A DNA stretch of 61,265 nucleotides, filler included, from Sphacelaria rigidula (taxonomy: Eukaryota): NCBI GenBank assembly GCA_964200075.2. It is 9 parts of 9 records of this genome, joined end to end, with 100 filler letters (N's around TTAATTAATTAA, not from the genome) between each part and the next. Parts side by side here need not be neighbours in the genome. Positions count along the whole stretch, not along the records: positions 13,639 to 20,357 come from CAXNAA020018437.1; 8 more parts are not named here. One strand, 5' to 3'. A model generated the notes under the pieces. The model was not told the origin of the DNA. It searched no databases and was given only the letters and a program-made list of their open reading frames with translations. This document shows positions 1,060 through 49,081 of this stretch, one piece after another. How positions within the stretch are numbered: the stretch's first letter is position 1; the number at the start of each line of letters is the position of its first letter. The translations under genes and the position numbers were made by a program.

Positions 1060-3354
1060 TCAGCCGGGATAAGGATGTCCAGGGGCGCTCACATCAAGTA
1101 ATAGATCTCGCGTGCCGGATACTGCCGCTGACACTTGCCGATAACGGGCGGACACATCCAATTCTAACTTCACATCGGCTCCCCTCTTTTCAGCCATCCC
1201 TCTATCCCCCGCTGTCACATCGAATAACGGCTCCACCCGCAACGTCCTACGTAGTCGCTTTGTGTTCCTTTCACTTGTAATACTACCACCGCAACCCCCA
1301 TTTATAGCCGTGCTGCTGGAGCCGCCGTTGCTCATATTGATGCAACTGCTGGATAGCGCAGTATCTAGCTCGCCGCTAGTTCCTATCCCCTCGAAAACTC
1401 CCCGAGACGTAATGGTCGCCTCCAGCTCCACTTTCATGCGTGCCTGTGCACCACCTAAAGGAATCTCATATGCTACCACAGCGCCGGGGAATTGTCCCGA
1501 GGCGGCAGGCGATGTGTTCAAAAACTTCGCCCTCCGTCGTTCGACACGAATGGCACGCGGACTGTGACGAGAATGAGCGTCACATTCCCCCTCTTTCGTG
1601 TCGGGATCGGCATCCGATCGATGGCTGGATCCTTGATGACCAGTAATACCGACACCATTCTCTCCCACGGCCGAATCATGGTTCAGGCGACTTGTTTCCC
1701 GGACACGTCCTGGTGTATCACACGCCATGGCTACGTCATGTGAGCCATGACGGTTGGCGATCTCGTGCTCCCGCACCCGGGTTAAAGAAGGCTGCAAGGC
1801 ATATTCACTGCCAATCATAGAGCTTGCGCAGGCGTGAGTTGTGCAAAACGCCTTCATGCCACGGGCTTCAACGAACGATGGGTACTTTGAGCAGTCCTCC
1901 TTGCCGCACCGTTTGCTTCGTACGTCAACCATACCTGGACGCGCGTGTGTGGCGCAGAACTCCGCCTTTCCGCCAGCGGCTGCACCGAACGATGGTTGGT
2001 TTGAGCAGCCCTCCTCGCCGCACCGCTTGTTTCTTCCATCGCCAAAGCCCGCCGGAGCGTGTGTGGCGCAGAACTCCACCTTCCCGCCACCAGCTGCTCC
2101 GAGCGATGGTTGGTTTGAGCAGCCCTCCTCGCCGCACCGCTTGTGTCTTACATCGACCATGCCCGCCGGGGCGTGTTCGGCGCAGAACTCCGCCTTTCTG
2201 CCGAATGCTGCACCGAAGGATGGGTAGATGGGGCAGCCCTCCTCGCCGCACCACTTGTGTCTTACATTGACCATGCCCGCCGGGGCGTGTTCGGCGCAGA
2301 ACTCTGCCTTCCTGCCACCGGCTGCACCGAACAATGGGTATTTGGAGCAGCCCTCCTTGCCGCACCGCTTGTGTCGTACATTGACCATGCCCGCCGGAGC
2401 GTGTGCGGCGCAGAATTGCGGCTTTTTGCCACCGGCTGCACCGAACCATGGTTGGTTTGAGCAGCCCTCCTCGCCGCACCGCTTGTTTCTTACATCTATC
2501 CTACCCGCCGGGGCGTGTTCGGCGCAGAACTCCGCCTTTCTGCCGAATGCTGCACCGAACGATGGGTATTTGGGGCAGCCCTCCTTGCCGCACCTCTTGT
2601 CTCTTACATTGACCATGCCCGCCGGGGCGTGTTCGGCGCAGAACTCCGCCTTCCTGCCACCGGCTGCACCGAACGATGGGTATTTGGAACAGCCCTCCTT
2701 GCCGCACGGCTTGTTTCTTACATTGACCATGCCCGCCGGGGCGTGTTCGGCGCAGAACTGCGGCTTTCTGCCACCGGCTGCACCGAACGATGGGCATTTG
2801 GAACAGCCCTCTTTGCCACACCGCTTGTGTCTCACATTAACCATGCCCGCCGGGGCGTGTGCGGCGCAGAACTCCGCCTTCCTGCTACCGGGTGCACCGA
2901 ACGATGGGTATTTGGAACAGCCCTCCTTGCCGCACAGCTTGTTTGTTACGTCGACCATGCCCGCCGGAGCGTGTGCGGCGCAAAACTGCGCTTTCCCGCC
3001 ACTGGCTGCACCGAACAATGGCCGTTTGGAACAGCCCTCCTTGCCGCACCGGTTGCCCCTTGTCTTGACCATGCCCACCGGGGCGTGTGTGAAGCAGAAA
3101 TCCGCTTTCCTGCCACCGGCTGCACCTAACAAAGGGTGTGTGGAGCAGCTCTCCTCGCCGCAGATCCCCGCCTTTCTGCCAACGGCTGCACCGAACGATG
3201 AGTGTTTGGAGCAGTCCTCCTTGCCGCACTGCTTGCTTACTACATCGACCATGCCCGCCGCAGCGTGAATGGCGCAGAAATCCGGCTTGCTGCTACCCTC
3301 TAAGGCATACAATGCTCTCGTAGTGCAATTCATATGGGTGCACACAAAAGGCAT
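1060..3354 (-). CDS. EsV-1-7 cysteine-rich repeat protein, 764 aa, intronless, about 14 repeats of 38 aa plus a low-complexity C-terminal tail
   Basis: Uninterrupted ATG-to-TGA ORF. The repeat consensus CGxEGCSKxPSFGAAGGRKAEFCAxHAPAGMVxVRxKR (C-X4-C...FC-X2-H) matches the EsV-1-7 domain family known from brown algae and Ectocarpus siliculosus virus 1. Confidence 0.9.
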   Translation of the reverse strand: MPFVCTHMNCTTRALYALEGSSKPDFCAIHAAAGMVDVVSKQCGKEDCSKHSSFGAAVGRKAGICGEESCSTHPLLGAAGGRKADFCFTHAPVGMVKTRGNRCGKEGCSKRPLFGAASGGKAQFCAAHAPAGMVDVTNKLCGKEGCSKYPSFGAPGSRKAEFCAAHAPAGMVNVRHKRCGKEGCSKCPSFGAAGGRKPQFCAEHAPAGMVNVRNKPCGKEGCSKYPSFGAAGGRKAEFCAEHAPAGMVNVRDKRCGKEGCPKYPSFGAAFGRKAEFCAEHAPAGRIDVRNKRCGEEGCSNQPWFGAAGGKKPQFCAAHAPAGMVNVRHKRCGKEGCSKYPLFGAAGGRKAEFCAEHAPAGMVNVRHKWCGEEGCPIYPSFGAAFGRKAEFCAEHAPAGMVDVRHKRCGEEGCSNQPSLGAAGGGKVEFCATHAPAGFGDGRNKRCGEEGCSNQPSFGAAAGGKAEFCATHARPGMVDVRSKRCGKEDCSKYPSFVEARGMKAFCTTHACASSMIGSEYALQPSLTRVREHEIANRHGSHDVAMACDTPGRVRETSRLNHDSAVGENGVGITGHQGSSHRSDADPDTKEGECDAHSRHSPRAIRVERRRAKFLNTSPAASGQFPGAVVAYEIPLGGAQARMKVELEATITSRGVFEGIGTSGELDTALSSSCINMSNGGSSSTAINGGCGGSITSERNTKRLRRTLRVEPLFDVTAGDRGMAEKRGADVKLELDVSARYRQVSAAVSGTRDLLLDVSAPGHPYPG
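1825..3342 (-). repeat. 114-bp coding tandem repeat array (EsV-1-7 units)
   Basis: Motifs such as gaccatgcccgccggggcgtg and gcagccctcc(t)tgccgcac recur about every 114 bp. The second unit is shortened. Confidence 0.9.
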
Positions 3355-6244
3355 CTTTACGTCTGTACTAGAAAAATATTCGCAGCCGCGGTTGTCCCGT
3401 TACCGCTGCTGCTATCTTCGCCGTCACGCGCCCGCTCTTGAAGACCAGCTCACCAACCCAGCAGCAGCCTGTTTCAAACAACCAACAAATATTACGATAC
3501 GTTGAGCCCACATGGAGGGTAGGCAAACCTTTATGTTTGAAGCTTGGTTGCAATATGCTCGTGGGCCGGAGTGGACGGACAGGCAAACCGTGGAGTCACC
3601 AGTCGACAGAAACAGCTACTGCAGCACGGTCGCTACAGCATCGACAGCACTTTCTACGACAAAGGCGGTACTAAGAGACCTTTCGAAAAAGGTTGGGTCG
3701 ACTGAGTATAGGGAGGGGCATCGAACTCTTGACGTGCAAAAAAGTCTTCAGCGCCGACGTCGCTCGTGTGGCTTCTCCACCGATCAGAAGTCCTTTGCAC
3801 AAGATGCGTCCATGGCCACTCAGATTTTTGCGCCTCGTGCCGGGGGTCAGGTTCACGTGAATGATATCCCTCAGCAGTAAACAATCTGCGCCGGGAGCCA
3901 CACTAGGCGGGTATTGAAGTAGGGGTGCGCAGATCTGTCGATATATCACGTATTGAGCGTACTGTCATGCGCGGTTTGGAAAAATCACCCTATCCTGCGT
4001 GGGCAGGGAAAGGGTCCTTCACAGTGCTTATAGTGACGGTAGGCTCTGACAGGGAAATTGTAAACGCCACTGAACGCGCCACATGGCATTCGCCCGGGAA
4101 GCGCTACTTCGTTGTTGGATCTTTGCAGCAGTAATAGCTGTAGTTGTTGTTGCCGCTGCTGGTGTGAACACTGATACGTGCAACGCGATGAAGTGGCAGG
4201 AAAAACTTGAATGAGCTGACCGGGTGTCGGGCTCTGAAGCGTTTCTGTACAACATTCGGATGCGTAAACAATGACTTTCGGACGCTCTCATCCTCCCACC
4301 AACCGGTGCCTTCCGGCACAACACATCAGCATGACGCGAGACAACGGCTACCGGCAGGCCATGCAATGCGTGGAGCTGTGGGGCTGCAGGGACGTGAGAT
4401 GCTGTGGGGCGCCAGGGCCTTGAGTAGCTATAGCACGTAGGTCGATCTTCCACATGGTGCAGTTCAAAAGCGCAGGGATTAGTGCAATTGGAATCGGGAC
4501 TGCTCTGAGGTCATCTTTGTGATGCGTGTTTACTCGAAGCCTCAAGATCGGGCATTTCTTTGCCGCTGGGGACGACCATACTCTTACGTGACGTTTTCAA
4601 TTCGAGCGAGAATTCCTCAACGAACGTGAATGATGGAAACGCACGAAATCAGCGCCTCCCCCGTTTGACGTACTGTGACACGGCCAAAACTGTTCTCCGA
4701 ATGACTGCATGATGTCAGGGCCAAAACACGACGTGTCAGTACATATTCTTGTATACAAGTAAAATAAAATTATGTTGCGTTCGTTGAGACTGCTGCACAC
4801 CAGCCTAAAACGCAACAGTGCGCTGAAGGAGGGCCTGTTTAGATCTCCAAAAGAGAAAACGAAGCTATCAAAGGCCGTACGAATGGTCATTTGTCTGACG
4901 ATTGATTTTAGTGAAGTTTAATCGAATAATACGAACAAATCATGGCGCTTTGATTTCAGAAACGCACCCCACGTACCGCATCCTACACACGTGGAATAGC
5001 GCAACACCGCGTACAGAATGTTCTGATCCGAGCATCCAGGCGAAAAAAATGGTATGTTCGTTCATTCTCACCAGCCATGATTCGTCGAACCCAAGGAAGC
5101 GATCACCCAGTCAAATCACGAGGAGGAATTGACATCATAACCTACTTAGTTTACCGGCTACGAGCGACATCCACAGGTGAGTCGTTATCCTGAGACGAAG
5201 GGGACACGTATGAAGAAGCAGCGGGAAACACGCGCAAACACGGACCTCAAGGTACAGCTGTAAAAACACCCTTAACATCAACGTCACGTCACGAGTGGCA
5301 CACCGGGTTTCACGGTATCGAGTAAGGTATGCTTGAATGATTGGTGCGATGTGTGAGGTGAGATTCAGGCTACATCTCTTCAGAAAAAATACATGAACAA
5401 GGCAGGACTCCCTCTCGCCCGGAATTATTGTCGCGTGGAACTCTGTACTTCAAGTTCCCCGGGTTCCACACAAATGAGCGAATCCAGCACCGTATTGTAC
5501 CGAGGAAACGGGAGATCATGACTCCTATTCGCAATAATGACCGAATCACGAATCTCTGGCACAGTCTCGTATTATATTGTTCCATGACGCGTACCAATCC
5601 TCATCGTACCGCCAATCACATATCACTTGGTAAAGAAGATGTGAAAATTCCAGGTCCCGCGACAACGGCACCATGAAAAACCCAGGGCAACTATACGTGG
5701 TGTGTGACTAAAGGATGGAAGGGGCGCATCAAACTGCAGTTGGGTTCCTAGAAATATCCATCATGTCTTCTTCACTGTCCTTCTTTTTAGGCCGTCTCCC
5801 GGAACCATTTCACGACTCTTGAAAGGGTTTCGCGTCTGTCACACCAACACGGGTTAGTCTGTCGCTCTGATGCTTGCCATCGTTTACTCGGTACTACACC
5901 ACGGCCGATGTACCGTCAGTCGTCTTGGGCCATGTCCTCTACTGTATAGCGTTCTATGTCCGCGGCTGTACTGCGTCGACCGCACAGTGTGGTGCTGCCG
6001 CTTGTGTATGCATGGCACGCGTTGTGCAGCAACGTGCTGCAGCTGTGTTTACTCTCTGTGCAGTTGGACAGCGGAACTGGCTGCATCGTGAAATTCCTGT
6101 ATCGTACGTGGTATCTACCCTCACGCGAAACGCTGTACGTCATCTATGTCTTGTCTGTACGACTTGATGCACCGTGCTTCATGGAAACCTTTCCGACCAT
6201 CCCCTCTTCCGACGAGATACTAGGATTGAGGGATCTATTCGGAT

Positions 6245-6650
6245 ATTTTGATGAGTGAGATTGTATCAAAGTTGTAATATGCAGCAGCGTTGGCGGGGAA
6301 CGCGAAGTTGGTGAATCATTATCAAACAATGCACGTGACTGCCGCCAAGAAAGTATTTGCATGCCCAAAAACGACGAGTAATATGGCACTGGAACCAGGA
6401 TTGGGAACGTATCCACTTGAAATAAACAGAGAAATGAATACACAGAAATCGCCATGTAGTAAAAGTAAGATGCAAAGAAAGATATTGCTAGCCATAGTTG
6501 ATAGGTCTGTGTAGAAGAAAATGACCAAAGGGCAAGCTGGAATAACGTGGGATAGCGTAGTTGAGAAGCTATAACGGTACCTATGAGAAAGCCAAGACGA
6601 AATGATGTCCACAGGTAAATGCACAGGGTATACAACCGAAATACGATATG
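6245..6650 (+). mobile_element. Degenerate LINE fragment, region C-terminal to the RT domain; same family as 29410-31038
   Basis: Nucleotide similarity to about 30020-30450, e.g. gaaagatattgctagccatagttgatagg vs aaaagatattgccagccacagttgagagg, and gtgggatagcgtagttgagaa vs gtgggacagcgtagtcgaaaa. Confidence 0.65.
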
Positions 6651-6719
6651 TGATCAAAATGGGGGGGGGGGGGGGGGGGGGGGGACGATGGGGTTTGGTC
6701 ATCGGATAATTTGTTTGTT

Positions 6720-6819
6720 NNNNNNNNNNNNNNNNNNNNNNNNNNNNNNNNNNNNNNNNNNNNTTAATTAATTAANNNNNNNNNNNNNNNNNNNNNNNNN
6801 NNNNNNNNNNNNNNNNNNN
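6720..6819. other. Artificial contig linker N44-TTAATTAATTAA-N44; also at 13539-13638, 20358-20457, 27177-27276, 33996-34095, 40814-40913, 47632-47731, 54449-54548
   Basis: Identical 100-bp spacer with a six-frame stop cassette. The flanking contigs are 6719, 6719, 6719, 6719, 6719, 6718, 6718, 6717 and 6717 bp, i.e. length-sorted. Confidence 0.97.
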
Positions 6820-13318: not shown

Positions 13319-13690
13319 GTGTGAAGAAAGTTCATATAGCTTCCTTCCCTAACAGAAATCATATCCTAGTCAAGATGTGCTCGGAATCATGACGATACTC
13401 GAGCAATGATACGGTAGGGGTGCACTTTTTTCGCGAATTTTTGTCTGGTTCAGGGGCTTCTAACGATGCTAGACGCACAAGAATACGGGTCAGGACATCC
13501 CCGTTTACAGATTTATTCGGGATATCCCCAGCACATTANNNNNNNNNNNNNNNNNNNNNNNNNNNNNNNNNNNNNNNNNNNNTTAATTAATTAANNNNNN
13601 NNNNNNNNNNNNNNNNNNNNNNNNNNNNNNNNNNNNNNCGTGTTTTGGATGAGATAAAGGGCTCCTAACAATTTTAACCTCAGAAAATAT

Positions 13691-15303
13691 TTGTGTACCC
13701 TTACCGTAGCATCACTCAACAACAATAACCATCATCGTCGTGGAAATCTCCGCCATCGAAATAACAACCGCACCAACAGCAGCAATAACACCAGCAGGAG
13801 TAACCACAACAGCAACATCGGCTGCAACAACTCCGACGGCCATCAACGCCAAGCCAATACAGCCGTCGCCGATTCAGCTTCTACAACCGCACAATCGAAC
13901 AATATCGGCCTACAAACTTCTTCATCAACAGCTTCGACAGTGATCGATTCATATTCACCACCAAACGGTACGGGATTTTCTTTTCTCTCTGGTTCACACG
14001 TCACTAATACATCTGAAAAAATTTCTTCCCAGTTAACAGTGGACAGCGGCAGCACTGGACACTTTCTGGATGATCAGTTGCTGCCCAATATCGGACGTGA
14101 AATGGTCGAAGTTGTCAAACTTGATTCCCCGATGACTATTTTAACAGCGGGACGCCATCTACTGCATGGTACAGCAAAAGGAGTTCTCAACACCGTCGTC
14201 ATTGACTCTGAGGGGTACCAACGTTCTGTTCGGCTCCCAGCCGTGATTGTCCCAGGTTTGGGGGAGCATCTGTTCTCCACTGTGCAAGCTCTTGCTAAGG
14301 GAGCTTCGACTATATTTTCTAACGAGTCCCATATCGACCTTGGAAAGTTCAAAGTGCCTATCAACAGTGACAGCAACGGAGCTTTACAGTATATCAGCGT
14401 GAAAGTTTCTCGGAAACCGCGTAGTATCAACAACAGCTCAGCATTTACATCTACAATTATGTCAGGAGAATCTATGGGCATCGGGACAGCCGTTGTTGCA
14501 GAAGCCATACACCACGACATGCCAGGATTTTCAGCAGCCATGTCTACCACGGCGGGAGCAGACCCGACAGCTTTGTCTACAATGACAGGAGCAGACACTT
14601 GGCATAGGCGACTTGGACATCCCACGGAGCAGGTCATGCGCCGTCTTCTGAATACCCGTGGATCAGGTGTGAACTTTGAGGGGTCAGTGTCACCTTGTGT
14701 AACGTGCAAAATCAATAAAAGTGTACAGAAGGACCGCCCCAAGACTGTTAACTCCACGAATATTTCGGAACGACTGCAACTGGTCAGCACTGACCTAACG
14801 GGACCGATCACGCCCATGGCGCAGAGGGGCTATCGTTACATGGCAAAATTTACGGACCTCTTCACGTGTTTCGAGGTAGTCTACTTCATCACTACGCTCT
14901 GCAGGTTCATCCAAGATTTGGCTATTCCTTGAGGACTCCGTATACACCGCCTGCGGTCAGACCGTGGGGGCGAATATATCGCGGACTGCTTGAAGAGGTA
15001 CTGTAACACTACGGGTACTCGTCAAGAGTTCACCGGCCCATACACTCCTCAGCAGAATGGCATTAGTGAAAGAGACGGGCGGAGTATCTTGAACGTTACA
15101 CGTTGCCTTCTGAACGAATCGAATTTGCCGAATCATGTTTGAGGAGAAATTACTGCAACTGCGGTCTTTTTTATTAACCGTCTGCCGCACACGAGCATCG
15201 GAGATTACACTCCAAATTTTCGGATGTTTCTCAAGCAACCGAAGCTATCATTCTTGCGTACAATCGGCTCGAGGGCGTTTGTGCACAGGGAGCGTCTGTT
15301 ATG
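13691..15303 (+). mobile_element. Ty1/Copia LTR retrotransposon pol fragment (protease, GAG-pre-integrase, integrase), pseudogenised
   Basis: VDSGSTGH protease; WHRRLGH...CVTC zinc region; integrase STDLTGP, LRSDRGGEY, PQQNGISER. In-frame TGA at 14930 and 15140; no RT/RNase H follows. Confidence 0.9.
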
Positions 15304-18300
15304 AATCGCGGCATACATGGAGGAAGGGCAGTACAATGATGGGCCCATCTAATCTGATGGAAAAGTCCCGGAGGGCTGACTGCGGGAACTGGCAATGTGC
15401 CGCAGTCAGGGGGAGGGATGTTTGAGCCCGTACGAAGGCGGTTACATAAACACGCCTCTTTACATCCGACTTGAACACGGTTCTTTCAGAATCGGTGAAA
15501 GCCGGCCCCCTGGCTTTTACTCCTATGGAAGGGAACGAAGTGACCTGAGACATGAGATTCAAAACTACCACTGAAAGAGAGAAACTGAATCGATCCTGAA
15601 GCTGATATCAAGATACCCTGACATTCAGGATGAGCTGCTCCTCGTTAAACTGATCATTCCTTGTGCTAGAAAACTGTTTTGCCCTGCGATAAATGGTGAG
15701 CGAGTACGTACAAATCATTGCATACTGTATTGCACATGGATGAATATGCCGCATGCTTGGTTGAAGTAGGAAATTTCACTTTATGCCCCGTCTTGTGAAG
15801 ATCCGTCATCACAGTGCTTGAGCAGCGATCATGGTAACCATAACAATTGAGACAGTAGTAAAAACGAACTAGTGCACGGACAAGCAAGAGAGGCTACTAT
15901 ACCGTTTGTCCGTATCATGGCGCTTCTACAACCGGGGCTATTGTGTCGACTGTTGTCATCTGTGACATATTGATCACTCCTTCCTACGATTTGCGAAATG
16001 CTCGTGCTAACGAAACATCAGTCGACGTGATGCTTCAGGCGTTATACGATGAAATATTGAAGTGCAATTCCGTTCTTCGCTTCATGTGATAATCGTGGTG
16101 ACGTCTGGGAGTGCGTAGCAGCGCACCAAATGGCCAGCAATGATATGTGATACCCTCACGTCCATGCAAGCATATATGGGTGGTTAAGCTGGGGAGGTTG
16201 CTGCAGCAGTTACCCGCATTTCAGCTCGTGATGCGAGTTAGCTCATGTAATGTTTGCAGACCGTGTCTCCGCAGGAACGCTCAACAAAGTCAGCTGTCCC
16301 GACGTCCGTATGTTGTATACAGACAATATCCGTAGATACATTTTATAGTATAAGTGCGGATGATTCGAATTTTTGGAAATTCAAGTGACCGAGTCAAGCT
16401 ACCGCATGCATCCAGTGTTAATCTCGCGAAGCCGCGTTTCTACAGCATCTGTGCACGACCACAACGCGTCTATAACAAGCTGTGACCTATGGAGGGAAAG
16501 GAAATGATGGCTGATACTGATAACACCGGGCTACCCGCTTGAAGTGATTTCACGGTTTATTGGATGACGTGGGGATGACGCTTGGCCCACTGGATTTAAA
16601 TTCGTGAACCGTCACTCGCTACCGTGAAACGTGGGGCTGATTGTGCAACCCGAGATATACCGAACAGATACGCTGATGCTGTCGCTTTGAGTCAAGTTAC
16701 TGTATCCGTACAGCGCTTATTCTTGGCCACTTGAAGCCGCGTTTCTACGGCATCTCGTGTCTGCAATAAGCGCTCACATGTATATCTACATCATGGGGTG
16801 CATGCTGCATGACAACGGTGCCATATGTATATGCATTCAACAGGATAGCGGGTATTTAAAGTGCAATCCCCCGCCCCAAGTACTATAATCGATCTGCTGC
16901 TATCCAACCTTGCTTTTGCCTCGACAAGTTGTAACCGAGAGGCAAACCGCCGAACAGATAGTGAGTGAAGCGCACGAAGGCGTACACAGGGAAACATCAT
17001 GTTACATGAAGCTAGGGGGGGTGTCACCAGCGTCAACGTAAAATACCATGTTATGCTATGCTTGCTTATACGCGGTGGCAGGTCAAATATTTCGCAAACA
17101 GCAATGAAAGAGTTGAAGCGGTGTGATCTCCCTTGCGCCTTAAAATAAAAACTTGCCCTTACGGGTGAGTGCACAGGATCGAAATGTGAAAGCCCATCGT
17201 GCAAGTAGCTGTGAGATGAGACAGCTTGATGTTTGCTCTATACACCACAACATCACGGTTGACGCCAAGATGAAATGATTCTCTACAACGCTTTGCTGTA
17301 TTCTTGGATGCCATAACTGTGGTACGCCCGAGTTCTGCTGGGTAACGCAGCTGCTCAGTTTTACTGTAGGCTCTGATTTTGCCGTGTGATGAGACAACGC
17401 CATGCTTGCTTTATAGCCATGACAGGTCAAATCTTGTCGTCTAGACCTGATTGAGTAGAGTCACGGTGGATACTAGGATTGCATGACTCTACACACTGCT
17501 TTGCGAAATATTTTCCCGCAACAGCTGCTGAATGTTTTCTGTTGTGCAATGCAGCTGAAAGGAGCGACGCTATGCTGCCTCACACATCAAGCTTGCTGTT
17601 TACTGTATTCCCCACACGTGAGTTTGCACTGCAACTCAAAATGGAGTAAAACCACTGTGCCCGTTTCACACGCCCCGTTTACAGCCGCCAGCTGGGGTTG
17701 AAGTGAAGTGGTTCACCCCAAGCCTGCGCAATGATACCCCTGCAGCTCCGTCGTAAAGCAACCGTTTTATTTATTGTGATGCTATTACAGGATGGCTGTA
17801 CAAGATGTCTGAACTGAGTGTTTGTTGGCCTTGGTGTGAATGTGCAAACAATGCTCGTCCAACAGCTGTTGTATTTTACACCGACAGCCAATTGCTTGAC
17901 AGAATCATCTTTCTTGCTTCATGATTCACCCTGCACATGAGGCGTACTGCGATACTTTTGGATACCGACGCTCGGTTCTTCCACATGCTACCGCCTGATT
18001 GATCATGATTGCTATTACAATATGGATGTACAGGATGACGGTACTGACTGTTTACGGCTTGCACCATCTTCTCGGTGAAATCCTTGACTTTGTACTCAGT
18101 CTAACAGTGCATGAGTAATGTGCTTTCACTGTAGGAACAAAACTGTTCCGAGTCACCATCGAATATCAAATGTCGAACTATAAATGCGGAAGAACCTCTG
18201 CCGTGTACTGTTTATTTGCGTCTATATACTGTAGGGACACATGAAGTAGTGATGGCAGTGTTGCCTGAGTGAAACTACTGAACGCGATATCAACCAGCAG

Positions 18301-18518
18301 ATGGGAGTTAAAGAACTGCCTGTAGAAGAGATACACAGGGCTATCGAGATGTTGTCGGCTACAATTAGTACCGAGTACATACAGCATCATATATATACTT
18401 TTAGGAACGCGAACCACTTGCTCGAGTATATCATGCATGACCACGTATGCAACGGTGAAAGAACGTCGTTTTACTCTATGCTTTGCAAATTCACGAAACT
18501 GCTTGTGTGACCGTAATA

Positions 18519-19380
18519 CCATACTGGTTGTGCATACATGCTACAAGGCACGATACCATGTGAGCCGATTCGTCGTGAACGGAAATTGCGAAGCTTGAAT
18601 CAACATGGGGTATTTGCCCTACCCCGGTCAGGGGGGGGGGGCGTACTCATTTACCCCGGTCAGGGGGAGAGCAGATCATTGATGCATTAAATGTGTGTTA
18701 TTGTCATGGAAATTGAATGTCACTTCAACGTGGTTCCCCCTGATTGATAGTTTTACCCTTGGTGGATAGCTCCAAAGGGTATGGGCGAGTCATACATGCT
18801 TGAGAACTTCGGGGCTATGTGGTGTCTGCTTCGATTTTGAAGAAATCAGACCCAATCATGTGCTTTCACTTTACTTCACGGCTTTCAATACATGGGGGAT
18901 CGTTTCCGTGTGCACCTAATACCCGCACCTCGTACATGACCGTGTATGCAACTGATAGAGAATGGCATTGTTACGCTGCCGTCCGCTAATGCACGGAAAC
19001 TTGCCTGTCTAACCGTAATGCCATACTGCCTGCATACATGCCACCAGGCACGGTACCGATTAGCCGTGAACATGAATTGCGAGGCTTGAATGAACGAAAC
19101 ATGAGGTATTTACCCTACCCCCTGGTCAGGGGGGGCAAATCATTAATGCTCGAAATGCTATTTTGTCATGTAAAACGGATGAAATCTCTACGTGGTCCCC
19201 TTGTTTGATCGTTTGCGCCCTTGGTAGATATCTTCAAAGAGTATAAACGAGCCATGCATGCGTTAAACGAATGGAGAGTTATGTGAAGTTGTTTCGATTC
19301 TAAGAGATCAAACCCAACCATATACTTCTAGCTTACATTTCGACTGCGAATACGTGGGTGGGTGTTTCCAGGTTCACTGT
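18519..19380. repeat. Diverged tandem duplication, period about 500 bp (copies start near 18519 and 19021)
   Basis: Collinear matches tgcatacatgc, gcttgaat, ggtcaggggg, acgtggt, ccttggt in both copies. Confidence 0.7.
18636..18651 (-). mobile_element. 16-nt 3'-terminal remnant of the oligo(C)-tailed LINE with 16-bp TSD
   Basis: taccccggtcaggggg at 18620-18635 and 18652-18667 flanks ggggggcgtactcatt (sense AATGAGTACGCCCCCC), which matches the LINE ends near 47802 and 48497. Confidence 0.75.
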
Positions 19381-20357: not shown

Positions 20358-20529
20358 NNNNNNNNNNNNNNNNNNNNNNNNNNNNNNNNNNNNNNNNNNN
20401 NTTAATTAATTAANNNNNNNNNNNNNNNNNNNNNNNNNNNNNNNNNNNNNNNNNNNNGTATGGGATACCCTGGTAAATACCGGGGGTACGCTCGGTACGG
20501 TACCTTACCTACGGTGCCTGTGGAATAGT

Positions 20530-23500
20530 TTGTTCTCTTTCACGACACTTGGTGCAAATCCTTCCGGTTGTTGGCAAGGTCTATCTGGGCAATCCATACT
20601 TACGATGTGCAGTAAGGCTTATCGTCGTATTTTCGATGCTGAAAACCTGTACGCCAATGAGACACGACCGCTATGTAGTACTGCGCGATTTAATGTCTAT
20701 GGCGGCGAGCAAAGGACACACGGTGAGAGTCTTGGAATCGATCCGTCTATCGTTGATTCAATCAGAAACCTGCTTGGTGAACACAACTCCTGGGTTAAAT
20801 CGTACAGAAGCGCGGTAGACGAGATTGTGCGAAATGACCATGACATTCACGATGCCCAAATATGCTTCGGTCCCGTCAATCGAACGACTCATGGGCCGAT
20901 TCTCGGCGAATTGCCTACGACGTCTGAAATCGCGGCGTGCATCTTCCAGGAAGACACTACACAATTGTTCCGGCAAGTGTATACTTTCCCACGCAATAGC
21001 GATTCAGGTAGACCCCGATTCGTACCAATATTTAGCGCCACTTACGAGCCTCTGCGCTAACCCCTTCTATTTTTTCTCGGACAGTAGTGATTGGTCAAAG
21101 GGCACCTGGATACCTGGTGAGGGACTCGTTGGTGTCACTGTCGGACCTGGCGGGGAAAAGGTACCACTAGCGTATTATGTCAGACAACGATTGCTGTCCG
21201 AGCCTGTCTTTCATAGATCAAGTAGAGTAACACAAGGGTACCTGTGTGATATGTACTCTCGCTACGAAGAAAAGTCCCTCCAGTATCCATCTGCCCCAGC
21301 AGGACAGAAACGTGTTACGACGTACAAGGTATTGGCAGATGCACCTGAAGGTGGTCAAAACGGTAAGGTATTGCCCAAGGATTTTCACGGTCACCCCGCC
21401 AAAATGAAGGAAAACATTAGAGATTCTCTAGCAGTCGTTGCAAGAAAGGGCCGTCCTAGTGCAATGATCAACATGACGTGTAACGGCAACTGGGAGATCC
21501 AAGCAAATCTTCTACCGGGTCAGACGGCATATGATAAACCGGATTTCTGTGCCAGGGTTTTCAAAATAAAAAATGACGAGCTTTTGAAGGACCTGAGAAG
21601 TGGCCGTATATTTGATCCGGTTAGCTTTGAAATGAGTGTCATCGAGATTCAGAAAAGAGGGACGCCCCACATGCATTTAGTCATTAAATTACACGGACCC
21701 ACACCCGATCAGCTGGGTGAAATGGACGAATGGTGCTGGGCAGAAATTCCTCCCGCTGGCCTCAACAACAGCAAATCTAGACAACAGGTGTTGAATCTCA
21801 TGGTACACAGACCACGTGAAAGTCACAACATGACTTCACCGTGCATGCAAGACGATCGTAATCGGCCTGGCGTGAAAGTATGTAGTGAAAAATATCCTCA
21901 ACCATGGCGCAATGCTGCAGTCGTAAATGGCAAAACCGGTAGAGCAGAGTCCCGTCGTCGTGACACCGGAGAAACATTTCCATACAAGCAGAAAGTAAAT
22001 GGCAAATTTGTCGACGCGTTCGCCACAAACCAGTGGATCGCCACGTACAATATTTGGCTTTTATCTAAATACAACTGTCATACGTGCTTCGATGTTTGCA
22101 CCGCAAGCGCTGTAGTCAAATATATTTACAAGTACATCAACAAGGGCGCTGACTTCGTGAAAGCTACGATTTTGTGCGGTGGCAATGAAATTGAAGCCCA
22201 CCGTTCGGCGCGATACGTATCAGCGGCCGAGGCTGCCTGGCGCCTCCTAGGGTTCCACACCATGGACCGTCACCCTTCCGTATCGTCCCTGCGACTACAT
22301 CTTCCCGACCTACAACAAGTTATTCTCGACGACTCCCTCCCCGGCTCTGACCAGCTCTCCGCCGCGCAAAACACACTGTCTGACCTCATTCTTCACCTCG
22401 GCAGGCCCACTGAGTCCGCATTTGAATCCCTGACTTACCTCGACTAGTACGAAAATTATGTCGTTCAAAAAGTTCGAAAATCTCGAACAACAGGGACTGT
22501 TTTCCGAGACACCTACGGCAGTTTCGTTACCCCACCTTCTTCTAAAAAACATGTCGCCCGAATCGTCGCCATCACACCTGATAAAAGCGATGTGTTTTAC
22601 CTGCGCCTGGTTCTTCACCACAAACCGGCGAGATCATTCCAACAACTGAGAAGTCACGACGGAACCGTGCATGACACTGTTCAGGACGCCGCCAGAGCTA
22701 TGGGTATCGTCAAGCACAACGACGAGTATAGAATTTGTTTGAAGGAGACCACCGTAATCGACACGGGTAGATAACTCCGTCAACTCCTCTTTACCCTTAT
22801 TCTCGACGGTGCGCCCGCGAAACACCTCTGGGAACAATTCAAACAAGACTTCACTGAAGATTTACGTCCATCCATGTCCGACATTGATGCCGACAACGGC
22901 GCACTTCGCGAAATCGATATCGCCTTGCAGCACCATGGACGAACAAATGACATGGTCGGCCTGCCTCCCGTTATTCATTTGGACACAGAGTACTTGCGTT
23001 TCAAACACATGTTCCACGCCGCTCAAATGCATGCTTTTGCTGATGAACACCTCCCAAATTTCACTCATGAGCAACGACATGTTTACGACAAAGTTATCGG
23101 TAGCGTGATGTCAGGGGCACCTAATATGTTCATGATAGATGCGCCTGCCGGCACAGGCAAAACATACACGGAAAGTGTACTTGCGCTCATCTCAGGTCCC
23201 GCTCTAAGTTGGTACTTCGTGTCGCCAGTATGGGTATAGCCGGTCTGCAGCTGCCTGGAGCTTGGACTGCACATTCCGTGTTCAAGCTCCCCCTCGATGA
23301 CAGAGACATCAGTGGCGCCATGTGCAACATCGCTGCCGAATCTCAGCGCGCCGAACTGCTGCGAAAATGTGCCCTCATCGTTTGGGATGAAATTCCGATG
23401 AGTCACTGATTTTCCGTTGAAGCTTTAAACCTTACTCTCCAAGACCTCATGGGCAACACCCATTTAATGGGCGGTAAGTCTGTCTTGCTCGATGGTGATT

Positions 23501-24482
23501 TACAACAAATAGGGCCTGTGGTAAAACGTGGTGGCGCCGCCGAAACAATCGACGCCTCCATCATCTCCAGCCCGCTTTGGATGCATATCAACCGGATGCG
23601 GCTCACAATCTCGCAACGCGATCGTGAGGACGCTTCGTACGGTACTTTTGTACGTATTATTGGAATCGGAACGCAACCACACATGACTACTGACGACGGA
23701 GTTGACGCCGCGCCCTTAGCTTACATTCCCGACACCTCAAATCATACTTTAGATCATTTCGTCATCGACACTCCGTCGATCCTGATGAAACTGATGCAAA
23801 CACTTTAGACTTCCTCCCGACTGCTGACCTCAACGCCATTGATGTCGCAGGAATACCGCCACATGCCTTGAATTTGAAGTTGAACTCGATCGTCATGATC
23901 ACACGAAATCTAAATTCCAAGCAAGGCTTGGTCAATGGACAAAAGGCAACTGTTCGTGGATTTTCCACGCGTGTTGTCCATGTTGAACTACTTGACGGAC
24001 AATCATCGCTCGTGCTTATTCCCCGAGTATGTTTTGAAACAAAAGTTGGCCGAAATGGAATTACTTTCACGCGACAACAGCTACTGCTTCGTGTATGTTA
24101 CGCACTGACCATCAACAAAAGCCAGGGGCAAACCCTCTCTAAAATTGGACTTGATTTGAGATCTGACGTCTTTACTCATGGCCAACTGTACGTCGCACTC
24201 AGTAGAGCGCAGAGACGATCCGCGATCATGTGCTTAACCTTGCCCTCTCGCTTGCGTGGTCATTTACGGCGGACTGCATTTGTTGCTAACGTTACTTTCC
24301 CCGCCTTCGTCACGGCTGCAAATGACTCTAACACTGCCTCGCTCCTGCTACCGCCGCCATACAATGACTACATCGGATGCATCTCTTCAGATGCAAACAC
24401 TCACGACGCCGACGATCGACGACATCCTCATCAGTGCCATGACAATGGCTGGATTGAGGCCAAAGGAACGCCCGACCGCTGA
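20530..24482 (+). mobile_element. Helitron RepHel gene (HUH endonuclease plus PIF1-family helicase), decayed
   Basis: Rep motifs MTCNGNW, EIQKRGTPHMH and YIYKYINKG. Helicase motifs DAPAGTGKT, IVWDEIPM, GDLQQIGPV, YALTINKSQGQTL and FTHGQLYVALSR. Stops or frameshifts near 21058, 22445, 22772, 23200, 23407 and 23770. Confidence 0.93.
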
Positions 24483-29099: not shown

Positions 29100-29330
29100 A
29101 ACTTTGAACCCCTCCCCCCTTCCTCGGGACAGGTGCGTGGTCTCATGGGACCAATCAACGCATCCCTCCCCGGCCCGAGCGTTGCATATTGGTCTCGCGG
29201 ATTGGGTAGGCACTCCCGTGAAACAAATTCAGTCAGCCACTTTTTCGTCAACTCACGTACCCAGGCTTTCGACGGTGGAAAATCAGACACTTCGAACAAA
29301 AAAACGAACGCATCGGGAAAACTTCGACGG
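29100..29330 (-). mobile_element. tRNA-derived SINE copy with truncated head, in a PAP intron
   Basis: Collinear with 52655-52968 and 55698-55989 (cttcctcgggac, gtggtctca, ggtctcgcggattgg, gctttc.acggtggaaa, aacgcatcgg). Confidence 0.7.
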
Positions 29331-29409
29331 GGAATCCGAGAAAGAAGCCAAATGTGTGGGCAGAGTAAAATGTAGAGGAAACGAACGGTAAGATAGGGGT
29401 TCAAAATAA

Positions 29410-31038
29410 TTGCAAGGAGAGTTCACGAGAGATGGAATGCAGGAGTGTGTAGATAAGCTCGACGATAAAATGGCAGCAGGCGTAGACGAAATAGTGAATG
29501 AGTGTATGAAGAACGGGGGAGAAAGAATCATCATAATGGTTATGGTGTATAATTGGATCTGGGAAAACGGGTACACACCCAAGAGGTGGAAGGAAAGACT
29601 AGGAGTAAACCATTCCAAGAAAGGAGGAGACAAGGCTAGCCCAGGAAATGATGGAGGGATGACGCTACTGAGCACCACAGGGAAAGCATACTGTAAGGTT
29701 GTGAACGGTAGAGTGGGAGCGATGCTGAAGAAGGAAGAAAAAGTCAGCGAGGGGCGAGCAGGGTTTAGACCAAACCGTAGCTGCATAGACCATGTGTACG
29801 AATTAGGCAAGATTATTCAAGGTAGGAAAGACGCAGGGCTAACACCATACCTTAGAGATCTATGAAACTGTGCTTGGGATGGACACATGAAGAAATTAAT
29901 AGGAAAGGGTAAGGAACGTATAGCCCAGATGGAAGTGGCCCTAAGAAACTCGCACCTACACACTAGGATCAAGACATGTTTTCTGATGAATATGAGTGTA
30001 CCGAAGCTAAAATGCGTACAGGTATGGAAAGGAAGCGCGAAGTTTGTGGGTGAAGCAGCTGGAAACAGTACAGACGACAGCAGCCAAGAAAATATGTGGA
30101 TACTCAAAAACGACAATGTGACGACGGCTAGATCCCTGGGGGGTCACTTGAAGTGCGAAAGTCAATCAAATCGATTCAAGAACGACGAGTGGTACAGCAT
30201 TGAGAGAAAAAATGAGGATGTGCTCACTTCAAACATATGATGGGCATGAGAAAATTGAAATGGCAGTATAATGTAAGGAACATGCCAAAAAAGATATTGC
30301 CAGCCACAGTTGAGAGGGCTGTATTGAAGGACGTGACGGTAGGGCAGGGTGGGAAAAGGTGGGACAGCGTAGTCGAAAAAGTATGGAAGGATGTAGGAGG
30401 AAACCGAGACGAGATAATGTTCATAGGTGAATGAGGGGGGTGCAAGACAAAAGTAATATCATATGAATGAAGCGGAAACTAGCACTGAGGAAGAAAGTGG
30501 GCGAGGAAGAGCGCCCGAAGATATAAGGGGGGTTGAGAGAATGGATAGGGATAAAAACATATCTGCACGGCCCAATGGACTACGCGAAAAAATTGCGAGC
30601 GCGATTTCGGGTGGGGGGCCTGGACCTGCCAGACAGGAGCAGGTATATCAGTAGTCGGGTGGAGGAGGAAGTAAAAGCACAGAATTGCCGGTGGCAAAGC
30701 AATTGAGAGTAGAACTCATAGAGTGCGATAGCGTGAACTATACAAGGAGGGGTGAGACGTATTAGAGAGGGGAATGTGGGAAGTAAACTACTGTGGCATT
30801 AAATAATTCGTTACATTAGACAGTAGTGAGGAAACGATGTCTATACTGGGAAATATATGGTAGCCACAGACGGCGAACGGGGATGGGACAAGATATGTCA
30901 AAGGTTTGTGTTATCTATGGAAGAACCGTAGTGAGCGATGACGGAGGTGTCTCTATCAGGAGTACGGACGGTGCTCCATCTCGAAAGGGATGCAACAGTC
31001 AAATGACTAAGGCAAGCAACGAATGAGTGTGCCCCCCC
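29410..31038 (+). mobile_element. Degenerate, internally deleted LINE (RT N-terminal part through the 3' end, finishing in oligo(C)), antisense within a PAP intron
   Basis: AAGVDEI, KKGGDK..PGN.GGMTLLST.GK.Y and GFRPNRSCIDH resemble non-LTR RT. The 3' end ...gactaaggcaagcaacgaatgagtgtgccccccc matches the minus-strand copies at 47802-48882. Confidence 0.85.
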
Positions 31039-31282
31039 GCCCTTCCCTAGTCACCCCCTGGAAGTAAACCATGGTATTGCCGAGTCAGTCATCATCCAGG
31101 TCGGAATAACTTTGGTCCCTGAGCATACATACCACAGTTTGCACTCATGCAAAATAATGTACCCGACATTTCACGCTTCGGTAACTTGCTAACTTCTACA
31201 TCATCAGGCGCACTCTCATCAATTCTACACCACGGACACCACGAGGGAGTACTTCAGCAACAACAACAAGCGAAACACTCAC

Positions 31283-47801: not shown

Positions 47802-48882
47802 GGGGGGCGCGTACTCATTTGTTGCTTGCCTTAGTCGTTTGGCCGTTGACCATGCATACCCTTCGAGACGAAGCACCGTTTCTACTCCCAATAGAGACAC
47901 GTCCAACATTCAGGTGCTCATCACGTCTCTTCCATATAATGCACATAAACATATATCATCCCCGTCCTCTTTCGCCGTCTATGGCCACCATCTATCTCCT
48001 AATGTAGCCATCGTTTTCTCCCTACTGTCTACTACATCAAACGATTTCATGCCACCTTCGTTCACGTCCCGCAAACCCTTCTCTGGCACGCCCCGTTTCT
48101 CCTTGTATACAAAATTTTACATTCTGCCACTAGATGCTCTTGATTGCTTTGCCACAGGGGTAGTTCTGTGCATCTACTCCCTCCTCCACTCGACTACTGG
48201 TGAATCTCTTTCTGGCAGGTCCAGGTCCCCCACCCGAAATCGCAGTTTGATATTTTTCGCAGCGTCCATGGAGTCATGCAGATATGTTTTGATCCCGATC
48301 CTGTCTTTCAACCCTCATATATCTTCAGGTGTTTTTTCTCGTCTACTTTGCGTATGCGGGGGGGCGTATAGATTTGTTGCTTGGCTTGGTCGTTTGACCA
48401 TTGACCACGCGTCCCTTTCGAGACGGAGCACGTATGCGGGGGGGGGGGAGCGTGAGCTCATGATCATGCATGCCATAGTCACACGGGGGAGGGGCGGCGT
48501 ACTCATTTATTGCTTGCCTCAGTCGTTCGACCATTGACCACGCATACCTTTCGAGACGGAGCACCGTTCCTGCTCCCAATAGAGACACCTTCAACATTCA
48601 GGTGCTCATTACACTTCTTCCATAATTTATACAAAAAATGTTTACATATCTTATACCCGTCCTATTTCGCCGTCTGTGGCCACCATCTATCTCCTAGTAT
48701 AGTCATCGTTTTCTCCCTACTGTCTAATACATCAAACGATTCCATGCCATCTTCGTTTACGTCCCGCATTCCCCCCCCCCAGCACGTCCCGTTTCTCCTT
48801 GTATAGTTCACATCCTGTCACTAAGTGACTTCTGCTCTCTATTGCTCTGCCACAGGGGTCATTCCGTCCATCTACTTCCTCC
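47802..48882 (-). mobile_element. Three stacked 5'-truncated 3' ends of the oligo(C)-tailed LINE (about 47802-48349, 48365-48430, 48491-48882)
   Basis: Each begins on the + strand with a G-run then cgtactcattt.ttgcttgcct, or a variant. The middle copy is flanked by the direct repeat cgtatgcggggggg (48351-48364, 48431-48444). Homologous to 30490-31038. Confidence 0.85.
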
Positions 48883-49081
48883 TGGGGGGGCGGGGCGGGG
48901 GGAGATGGATTAATCCCCTGAGACCACTGATTAGCCCCGAAGGAGGGGAGTAATTGAAAGTATAAATAATCAAATCAAATCAGAAAATATTCCAATGTTG
49001 CATTGACGGAAGTTGAGATATGCTCCCCTCCCCCGTTATCGCCGCCTCTCCCTTCCCTCCCGCCCTGCCCCTTCATTTTAG

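Follow-up and report, generated by a model that had tools for sequence, protein, structure and literature searches.

Human and mammalian L1 elements nick their target at 5'-TTTT/AA-3', prime reverse transcription on poly(A) and leave target site duplications (TSDs) that start with A. In the available passages of PMC3747384, L1 is described as dependent on poly(A), while other LINE tails are given as (CA)n, (CAA)n or (CCAT)n for green-algal RTEX (also in its Table 3), (TTG)n for plant RTE, (TAA)n for the I element and (TGTAA)n for UnaL2. Such non-A tails are thought to act via pairing and slippage (PMC3747384, same passages).

The closest described elements come from the brown alga Ectocarpus. 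As far as the consulted part of Supplementary Material 3 of PMC12477816 (Genome Biol 2025) goes, RTEX-1_Ec32 is annotated as 'single EN-RT ORF; (C)n 3'' with a 'C-rich' TSD, RTEX-2_Ec32 carries '(C)n termini/TSD', and the TSDs of the non-autonomous RTEX-N1/N2_Ec32 are likewise termed 'C-rich'. The same source gives (CAA)n ends for Ectocarpus RTE-1/2 and a (CA)n end for CRE-1, and counts 16,418 RTE-X copies, or 3.41% of the genome. The available portion of its main text uses 'C-rich' 0 times and is silent on the C tail, the nick site and priming. The name RTEX-1 also appears for Saccharina in the available part of PMC4421812. Searching the literature for LINE tails of poly-C or oligo-C, with the spelling 'poly(C)' outside the scope, returned nothing relevant.

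The insert locus

The window analysed here is a 61,265-nt stretch of DNA from Sphacelaria rigidula, fillers included. At 18620-18667 it holds a 16-nt insert between perfect repeats, which is very probably an extremely 5'-truncated, target-primed insertion of an APE-type LINE, most likely an RTE-X relative of Ectocarpus RTEX-1/2_Ec32, into one unit of a ~497-bp repeat. Direct reading of the plus strand gives TACCCCGGTCAGGGGG at 18620-18635, GGGGGGCGTACTCATT at 18636-18651 and TACCCCGGTCAGGGGG again at 18652-18667. The minus strand from 18667 to 18620 accordingly reads CCCCCTGACCGGGGTA - AATGAGTACGCCCCCC - CCCCCTGACCGGGGTA, that is, a 16-nt TSD, AATGAGTACG followed by C6, and the TSD once more. 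This is the layout that the original prediction had written down, with a duplication matching at 16/16 positions around 16 nt. A repeat search found this pair (16 nt twice, 100% identical, spacing 32 nt) as the sole direct repeat in 18400-18900. The parts of the locus and its surroundings are as follows.

18652..18667 (-): upstream (5') TSD copy in element orientation, CCCCCTGACCGGGGTA, 16 bp (sequence and repeat search)
18642..18651 (-): last 10 unique LINE bases, AATGAGTACG, including the ORF stop TGA and then GTACG (sequence and alignment)
18636..18641 (-): oligo(C) tail, six C beyond what the target supplies (run-length count)
18620..18635 (-): downstream (3') TSD copy, CCCCCTGACCGGGGTA (sequence and repeat search)
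19116..19135 (-): empty site of the adjacent tandem unit, reading CCCCCCCTGACCAGGGGGTA on the minus strand (MAFFT alignment)
18100..19300 (.): high-copy repeat with a period of ~497 bp, host sequence of the insertion (public contigs; two tandem units in the window)

The six tail C and the 5 C of the downstream TSD form a continuous 11-C run (18641-18631, minus strand). The target's own run is taken as 5 C, since ...GCTCT stands just before the upstream TSD copy. Since that copy has only 5 C against the 11-C run, at least six C come from the tail and not from the target. Runs of C or G of length at least 6 number 55 in the 61 kb of the whole window, several of them 10-24 long. With such runs so frequent, a C-run alone is weak evidence, and the specific evidence lies in the 10-mer together with the TSD.

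The insert as a LINE 3' terminus

A search with AATGAGTACGCCCC, a 14-mer, allowing at most 2 mismatches, gave four matches in the window against 0.26 expected, a number reached in 0 of 100 shuffles. One is the insert itself (18638, 0 mismatches); the others, at 47806 (-) and 48494 (-) with 1 mismatch each and at 31022 (+) with 2, are all 3' ends of a repeat. The 10-mer AATGAGTACG recurs exactly at 47810-47819 and 48498-48507 and is confined in the window to LINE ends, and in alignment A1, which sets it against eight LINE copies, the insert follows the LINE 3' terminus base by base. The match to the LINE end near 31022 and 47802 that had been proposed from the sequence stands, and the chance commonness of the insert sequence that had been named as a way to refute it was not seen in the window. 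Together with the TSD and the empty site described below, this terminus match bears out the proposal that the very 3' end of a LINE was retro-inserted here. As it holds only 10 unique nt, the insert could also derive from the RNA of a non-autonomous partner with the same LINE 3' end.

A perfect 16-bp flanking duplication is not made by break repair, and at any one fixed position the probability that all of the last 10 nt of the LINE are matched by chance, with a C-run right behind them, is about 1e-6. Both points, like the outcome of the 14-mer search, make it highly improbable that the locus records a non-LINE event, namely templated filler DNA or slippage where a break in a satellite unit was repaired, with a likeness to the LINE end arising by chance, even though high-copy tandem repeats such as the one around the locus often rearrange, and C/G runs are as common in the 61 kb as counted above.

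The LINE copies to which the insert corresponds are the following; all but copy A are on the minus strand.

29247..31042 (+): degenerate LINE copy A, from which about aa 812-992 are deleted internally; ends AATGAGTGTG followed by C7 G C3 (tblastn with P0001, local alignment)
47802..48357 (-): LINE copy B, 5'-truncated, ~550-559 nt; ends AATGAGTACG followed by CG C6 (tblastn and alignment)
48358..48430 (-): LINE copy D, 66-67 nt and a C7 tail; unique end at 48365 (alignment)
48485..48883 (-): LINE copy C, 385 nt and the tail CCGCCCCTCCCCC (alignment)

These copies are 73-82% identical to one another. Copy A demonstrates that internal deletions do happen in the family, and the insert might accordingly be what such a deletion left of a longer LINE copy, its last 10 nt. 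The start of the deletion would, however, need to coincide exactly with the TSD boundary, and the perfection of both TSD copies and of the 10-mer points to a young, simple event; we give this explanation very little credence, and read the locus as a primary insertion of a truncated LINE end.

Copies B, D and C stand head to tail within 1.2 kb, each adjoining a C-run, a clustering that fits existing C tails being themselves targets. The window is composed of nine pieces of ~6719 nt joined by the filler N44 - TTAATTAATTAA - N44, a six-frame stop linker, every 6819 bases (e.g., 6720-6819, 13539-13638 and 20358-20457). The insert, copy A and copies B, C and D fall in three different pieces, so that their genomic adjacency is not assured.

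Several other features were noted in the window. A more distant LINE fragment at 6245-6661 (+) is 44% identical to aa 1030-1169 of P0001, and a 24-C run lies next to it on the opposite strand (6684-6661), just before a join. Some C/G runs follow ...GTAA or ...GTCT (44524, 37892, 51407) and could be the tails of other C-tailed retroposons. A 779-aa open frame at 1060-3399 (-) contains 12 EsV-1-7 cysteine-rich motifs (Pfam PF19114, E 8.6e-170) and overlies a 114-bp tandem repeat array at 1843-3297. Helitron remains occupy 20410-24482 (+), where Helitron_like_N spans 20819-22447 (E 1.2e-30) and part of a Pif1-type helicase spans 23706-24482, and a 424-aa frame with a GAG-pre-integrase domain at 13658-14932 (+) represents a fragment of a Copia-type LTR element.

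The empty site and the host repeat

The original prediction had pointed to a paralogous duplicate without the insert. In the MAFFT alignment this paralogue (19116-19135, TACCCCCTGGTCAGGGGGGG) indeed runs across the insertion site without the 32 bases. The two units of ~500 bp involved, 18930-19358 and 18431-18896, are only ~67% identical by BLAST. Logan contigs of four public runs aligned to 18100-19300 supply further empty forms, found in contigs from 3 of the 4 runs. One contig each of runs X1 and X4 skips from 18619 to 18652, exactly 32 bases, with 15 ambiguous letters at the joint, as expected because a TSD yields such ambiguity. Skips of 32 bases also occur in one X4 contig (18636 to 18669) and one X3 contig (18638 to 18671), and loose contig ends ahead of 18652 read ...GGGGTATTTACCC, the letters between contig joints being those of the site without the insert. 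Among the contig pieces listed, which come from assemblies that drop rare variants, only the empty form of the site is seen. The empty site therefore rests on more than one diverged paralogue, and its existence as originally claimed is confirmed in both tandem paralogue and public contigs lacking exactly 32 bases.

The host sequence is abundant: between 327 and 1235 contigs per run matched 18100-19300 in the four runs, and their joints skip 491-505 bases or go back 429-440, from which the period of ~497 bp follows. Some public contigs have an additional G at 18662, and homopolymer runs differ between repeat units.

This ~497-bp repeat itself ends in AATGATTTG followed by C7, and was considered as a non-autonomous derivative of the LINE tail. 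The candidate was rejected, as its similarity to the LINE tail was not significant: in local alignments against the last 120 nt of the LINE, 234 and 367 of 500 shuffles reached the score, and in end-anchored alignments of 25-60 nt, 142-240 of 2000 did so.

The element and its relatives

The window copies match P0001 in tblastn, a full-length relative of 1360 aa (80% identical) with PF03372, PF14529 and PF00078 in the precomputed Pfam annotation. A second full-length relative, P0002, has 1328 aa (73% identical) with PF03372 and PF00078 from the same source. Both are a single EN-RT ORF from the M to the C-terminal ...NGQMTKASNK. In these full-length relatives the AP-like endonuclease is N-terminal in the same ORF as the reverse transcriptase (RT), and it is missing from the truncated window copies; a C-x-C...H...C motif lies downstream of the RT in the element. 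On its sequence the element is an APE-type non-LTR retrotransposon with one ORF of ~1360 aa encoding an AP endonuclease and a reverse transcriptase. Its C-terminal part is also contained in the Ectocarpus protein model P0003.

Further copies were sought in public contigs. A 21-letter pattern scan of metagenome contigs returned 8 loci, of which L001, L005 and L006 are true homologues and the other five are unrelated coding sequence. L001 and L005 have open 670-aa frames with RVT_1 at E 2.7e-33 and 3.1e-31. Scanning of prokaryote genome contigs returned one locus, L009, whose contig is presumably algal DNA although it had been assigned to a bacterial MAG. The only further match there is on a second contig of the same MAG (L011, 1500-1580), a divergent and unclear LINE-tail-like fragment ending C-rich, which suggests more algal DNA in that bin. 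Viral contigs scanned with P0001 yielded no relative.

The frame stop TGA lies within the motif AAATGAGTACG, and GTACG alone, 5 nt, separates the stop from the C-run; in L001 the stop is at 696-694 and GTACG at 693-689. A conserved 3' stem-loop was not supported by RNAalifold on seven copies (24 pairs, covariation term +0.19, a compensatory change in only 1 pair), in a region that is coding as well.

Tails, TSDs and 5' junctions

A C-run of at least 6 or a C-rich tract follows 9/9 of the 3' ends compared, those of copies A, B, C and D, the insert, L001, L005, L006 and L009. The tails after the unique end are:

insert: C11
copy A: C7 G C3
copy B: CG C6
copy C: CCGCCCCTCCCCC
copy D: C7
L001: C8
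L005: C10
L006: CCT C7
L009: C9 T C9

An A-rich tail of the kind known from L1 was found at 0 of these nine 3' ends, five in the window and four in public contigs. The family tail is hence oligo(C) and not poly(A), as had been predicted, and A-rich tails after the C-run, which would have spoken against that proposal, are absent from all nine copies.

The copies share their 3' end and differ by 5' truncation, with TSDs of variable length. Measured by alignment to L001 and L005, the 5' ends lie before the terminus by 10 nt in the insert, 67 in copy D, 338 in L009, 385 in copy C and ~559 in copy B. In these five the 5' end is defined, whereas that of copy A is uncertain, and the TSD count leaves out L001, L005 and L006, whose 5' ends are beyond the 2 kb of sequence analysed. 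The 5' end of copy A is possibly near 29137, with only weak protein-level hints upstream of 29308. Near 29137 stands CT-CCCCCC-TTCCTCGGGAC, which resembles the 3' flank of the copy, CCCTTCCCTAGTCAC, and gives a possible imperfect TSD (CCCCCC-TTCCTCGGGAC versus CCC-TTCCCTAGTCAC) that depends on this uncertain 5' end. The duplications of the window copies with defined 5' ends are:

insert: 16/16
copy D (-): C(up to 7)+GCATACG; upstream C11-GCATACG at 48448-48431, downstream C7-GCATACG at 48364-48351
copy C (-): CCGCCCC[G/T]CCCCC, 12/13, C-rich; 5' flank 48902-48884 = CCCCCCGCCCCGCCCCCCC
copy B: a C-run alone in common

L009 lacks a TSD, and its 5' junction is free of C-runs. The TSDs starting with C that the original prediction expected of the family are present in the insert, D and C, 3/5 of the copies whose 5' end is defined, whereas B shares only a C-run and L009 shows none. 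At every 5' junction in the window the C-run is preceded, on the element strand, by CT; with n=3-4, a background of 17-19% for CT ahead of C-runs and the motif noticed after the fact, this is a lead and not a finding.

A proposed mechanism for C-tailed insertion

The anatomy of these copies fits target-primed reverse transcription because of the staggered break of ~14-16 nt, the shared 3' end, the variable 5' truncation and TSDs that start with the tail base. For the insert, the element endonuclease would have nicked the bottom strand at the edge of the G-run, 5'-...CAGGGGG^AGAGC-3', as the TSD boundary suggests. The 3'-OH of the G-run may then have paired with the oligo(C) in which the RNA would end, and so have served as primer for reverse transcription. 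As the inserted sequence shows, only about 10 nt of RNA were copied, namely GTACG, the TGA and the two or three A before it. The cDNA would finally have been joined to the far side of a break staggered by 16 nt, possibly helped by microhomology of a single A; the 16-bp TSD seen at the locus would be what that break left.

The observed 16-bp duplication, the insert's match to the LINE terminus, the surplus of C relative to the target and the family-wide C tail all enter this scheme as direct observations. We infer, on the other hand, that the C is borne in the RNA rather than added untemplated, and likewise the nick motif. The same LINE may instead have inserted with a C-run that was not RNA-borne: either the template ends ...GTACG and the RT adds untemplated G, or the endonuclease prefers C/G runs and the C represents target sequence with later slippage. 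The insert, with 11 C where its target has 5, does not sit easily with this, and a C-run right after GTACG in 9/9 copies, whatever comes next, is what would be expected of a transmitted part of the element; the Ectocarpus curators, too, put '(C)n 3'' into the consensus (PMC12477816, consulted part). What lends it some weight is copy D, whose C-run is shorter at the 3' side (7) than in the 5' flank (11), so that extra C is unneeded there, as well as tail lengths that range from 6 to >10 with frequent interruptions (CG, CCT, CCG) and the homopolymer variation between repeat units, including the extra G at 18662 in some contigs. On the whole we consider a C-run of such origin unlikely.

Priming of a G-run on an RNA-borne C tail is, in turn, a plausible step towards which we lean slightly. 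It had been put forward in the original prediction as a G/C mirror image of L1 priming, and it fits every junction seen; as a mechanism it stays conjectural, with at most 3-4 of the junctions informative. The literature searched, including the available portion of the PMC12477816 main text, holds no description of G-run/oligo(C) priming or of the nick motif. Whether this brown-algal RTE-X lineage is a true G/C mirror of L1, nicking at 5'-G(n)^AG-3' and priming from the G-run on RNA-borne oligo(C), appears to us evenly balanced. With the ORF stop 5 nt before the tail, such a mirror mechanism would place the RNA signal recognised by the RT inside coding sequence.

Discussion

The features reported for RTEX-1/2_Ec32, a single EN-RT ORF, a (C)n 3' terminus and C-rich TSDs, recur in the window element, the last of them in the insert and copies D and C. 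Brown-algal host and high copy number are further points in common, and the Ectocarpus protein P0003 contains the C-terminal region of the window element. Because the ends curated for Ectocarpus are (CAA)n in RTE elements and (CA)n in CRE, the element is quite probably an RTE-X relative, an assignment made by shared features and elimination, not by RT phylogeny. The novelty of the family, of which the original prediction was aware of no description, has thus to be given up: C-tailed RTEX-1/2_Ec32 are already in the Ectocarpus TE library, according to the consulted part of PMC12477816.

The comparison with better-known LINEs is instructive in both directions. As in L1, a homopolymer at the nicked end would pair with a homopolymer RNA tail in target-primed reverse transcription, 5' truncation is frequent, and the variable TSDs of ~14-16 nt start with the tail base. 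Unlike L1, the element has a C tail and one ORF only, lacks both an ORF1 and a 3' UTR (5 nt from stop to tail) and belongs to another clade; a C tail lies beyond polyadenylation and must be encoded or otherwise added. With the short-repeat-tailed LINEs it shares a non-A 3' repeat that would pair with the target and can slip, and a 3' end common to non-autonomous partners, whereas the repeat unit of the window element is a single base, C.

These observations do not define a new class, as C-tailed RTE-X LINEs with C-rich TSDs are catalogued and non-A tails are common in RTE and RTE-X. What the locus offers is a clean, minimal case of target-primed insertion by a LINE with an oligo(C) instead of a poly(A) tail, one in which part of the C-run is element-borne and which shows that an insertion copied from a mere 10 nt of template can become fixed. 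If the mirror mechanism holds, the 16-nt insert would be its minimal natural product, with at least six C travelling with the RNA.
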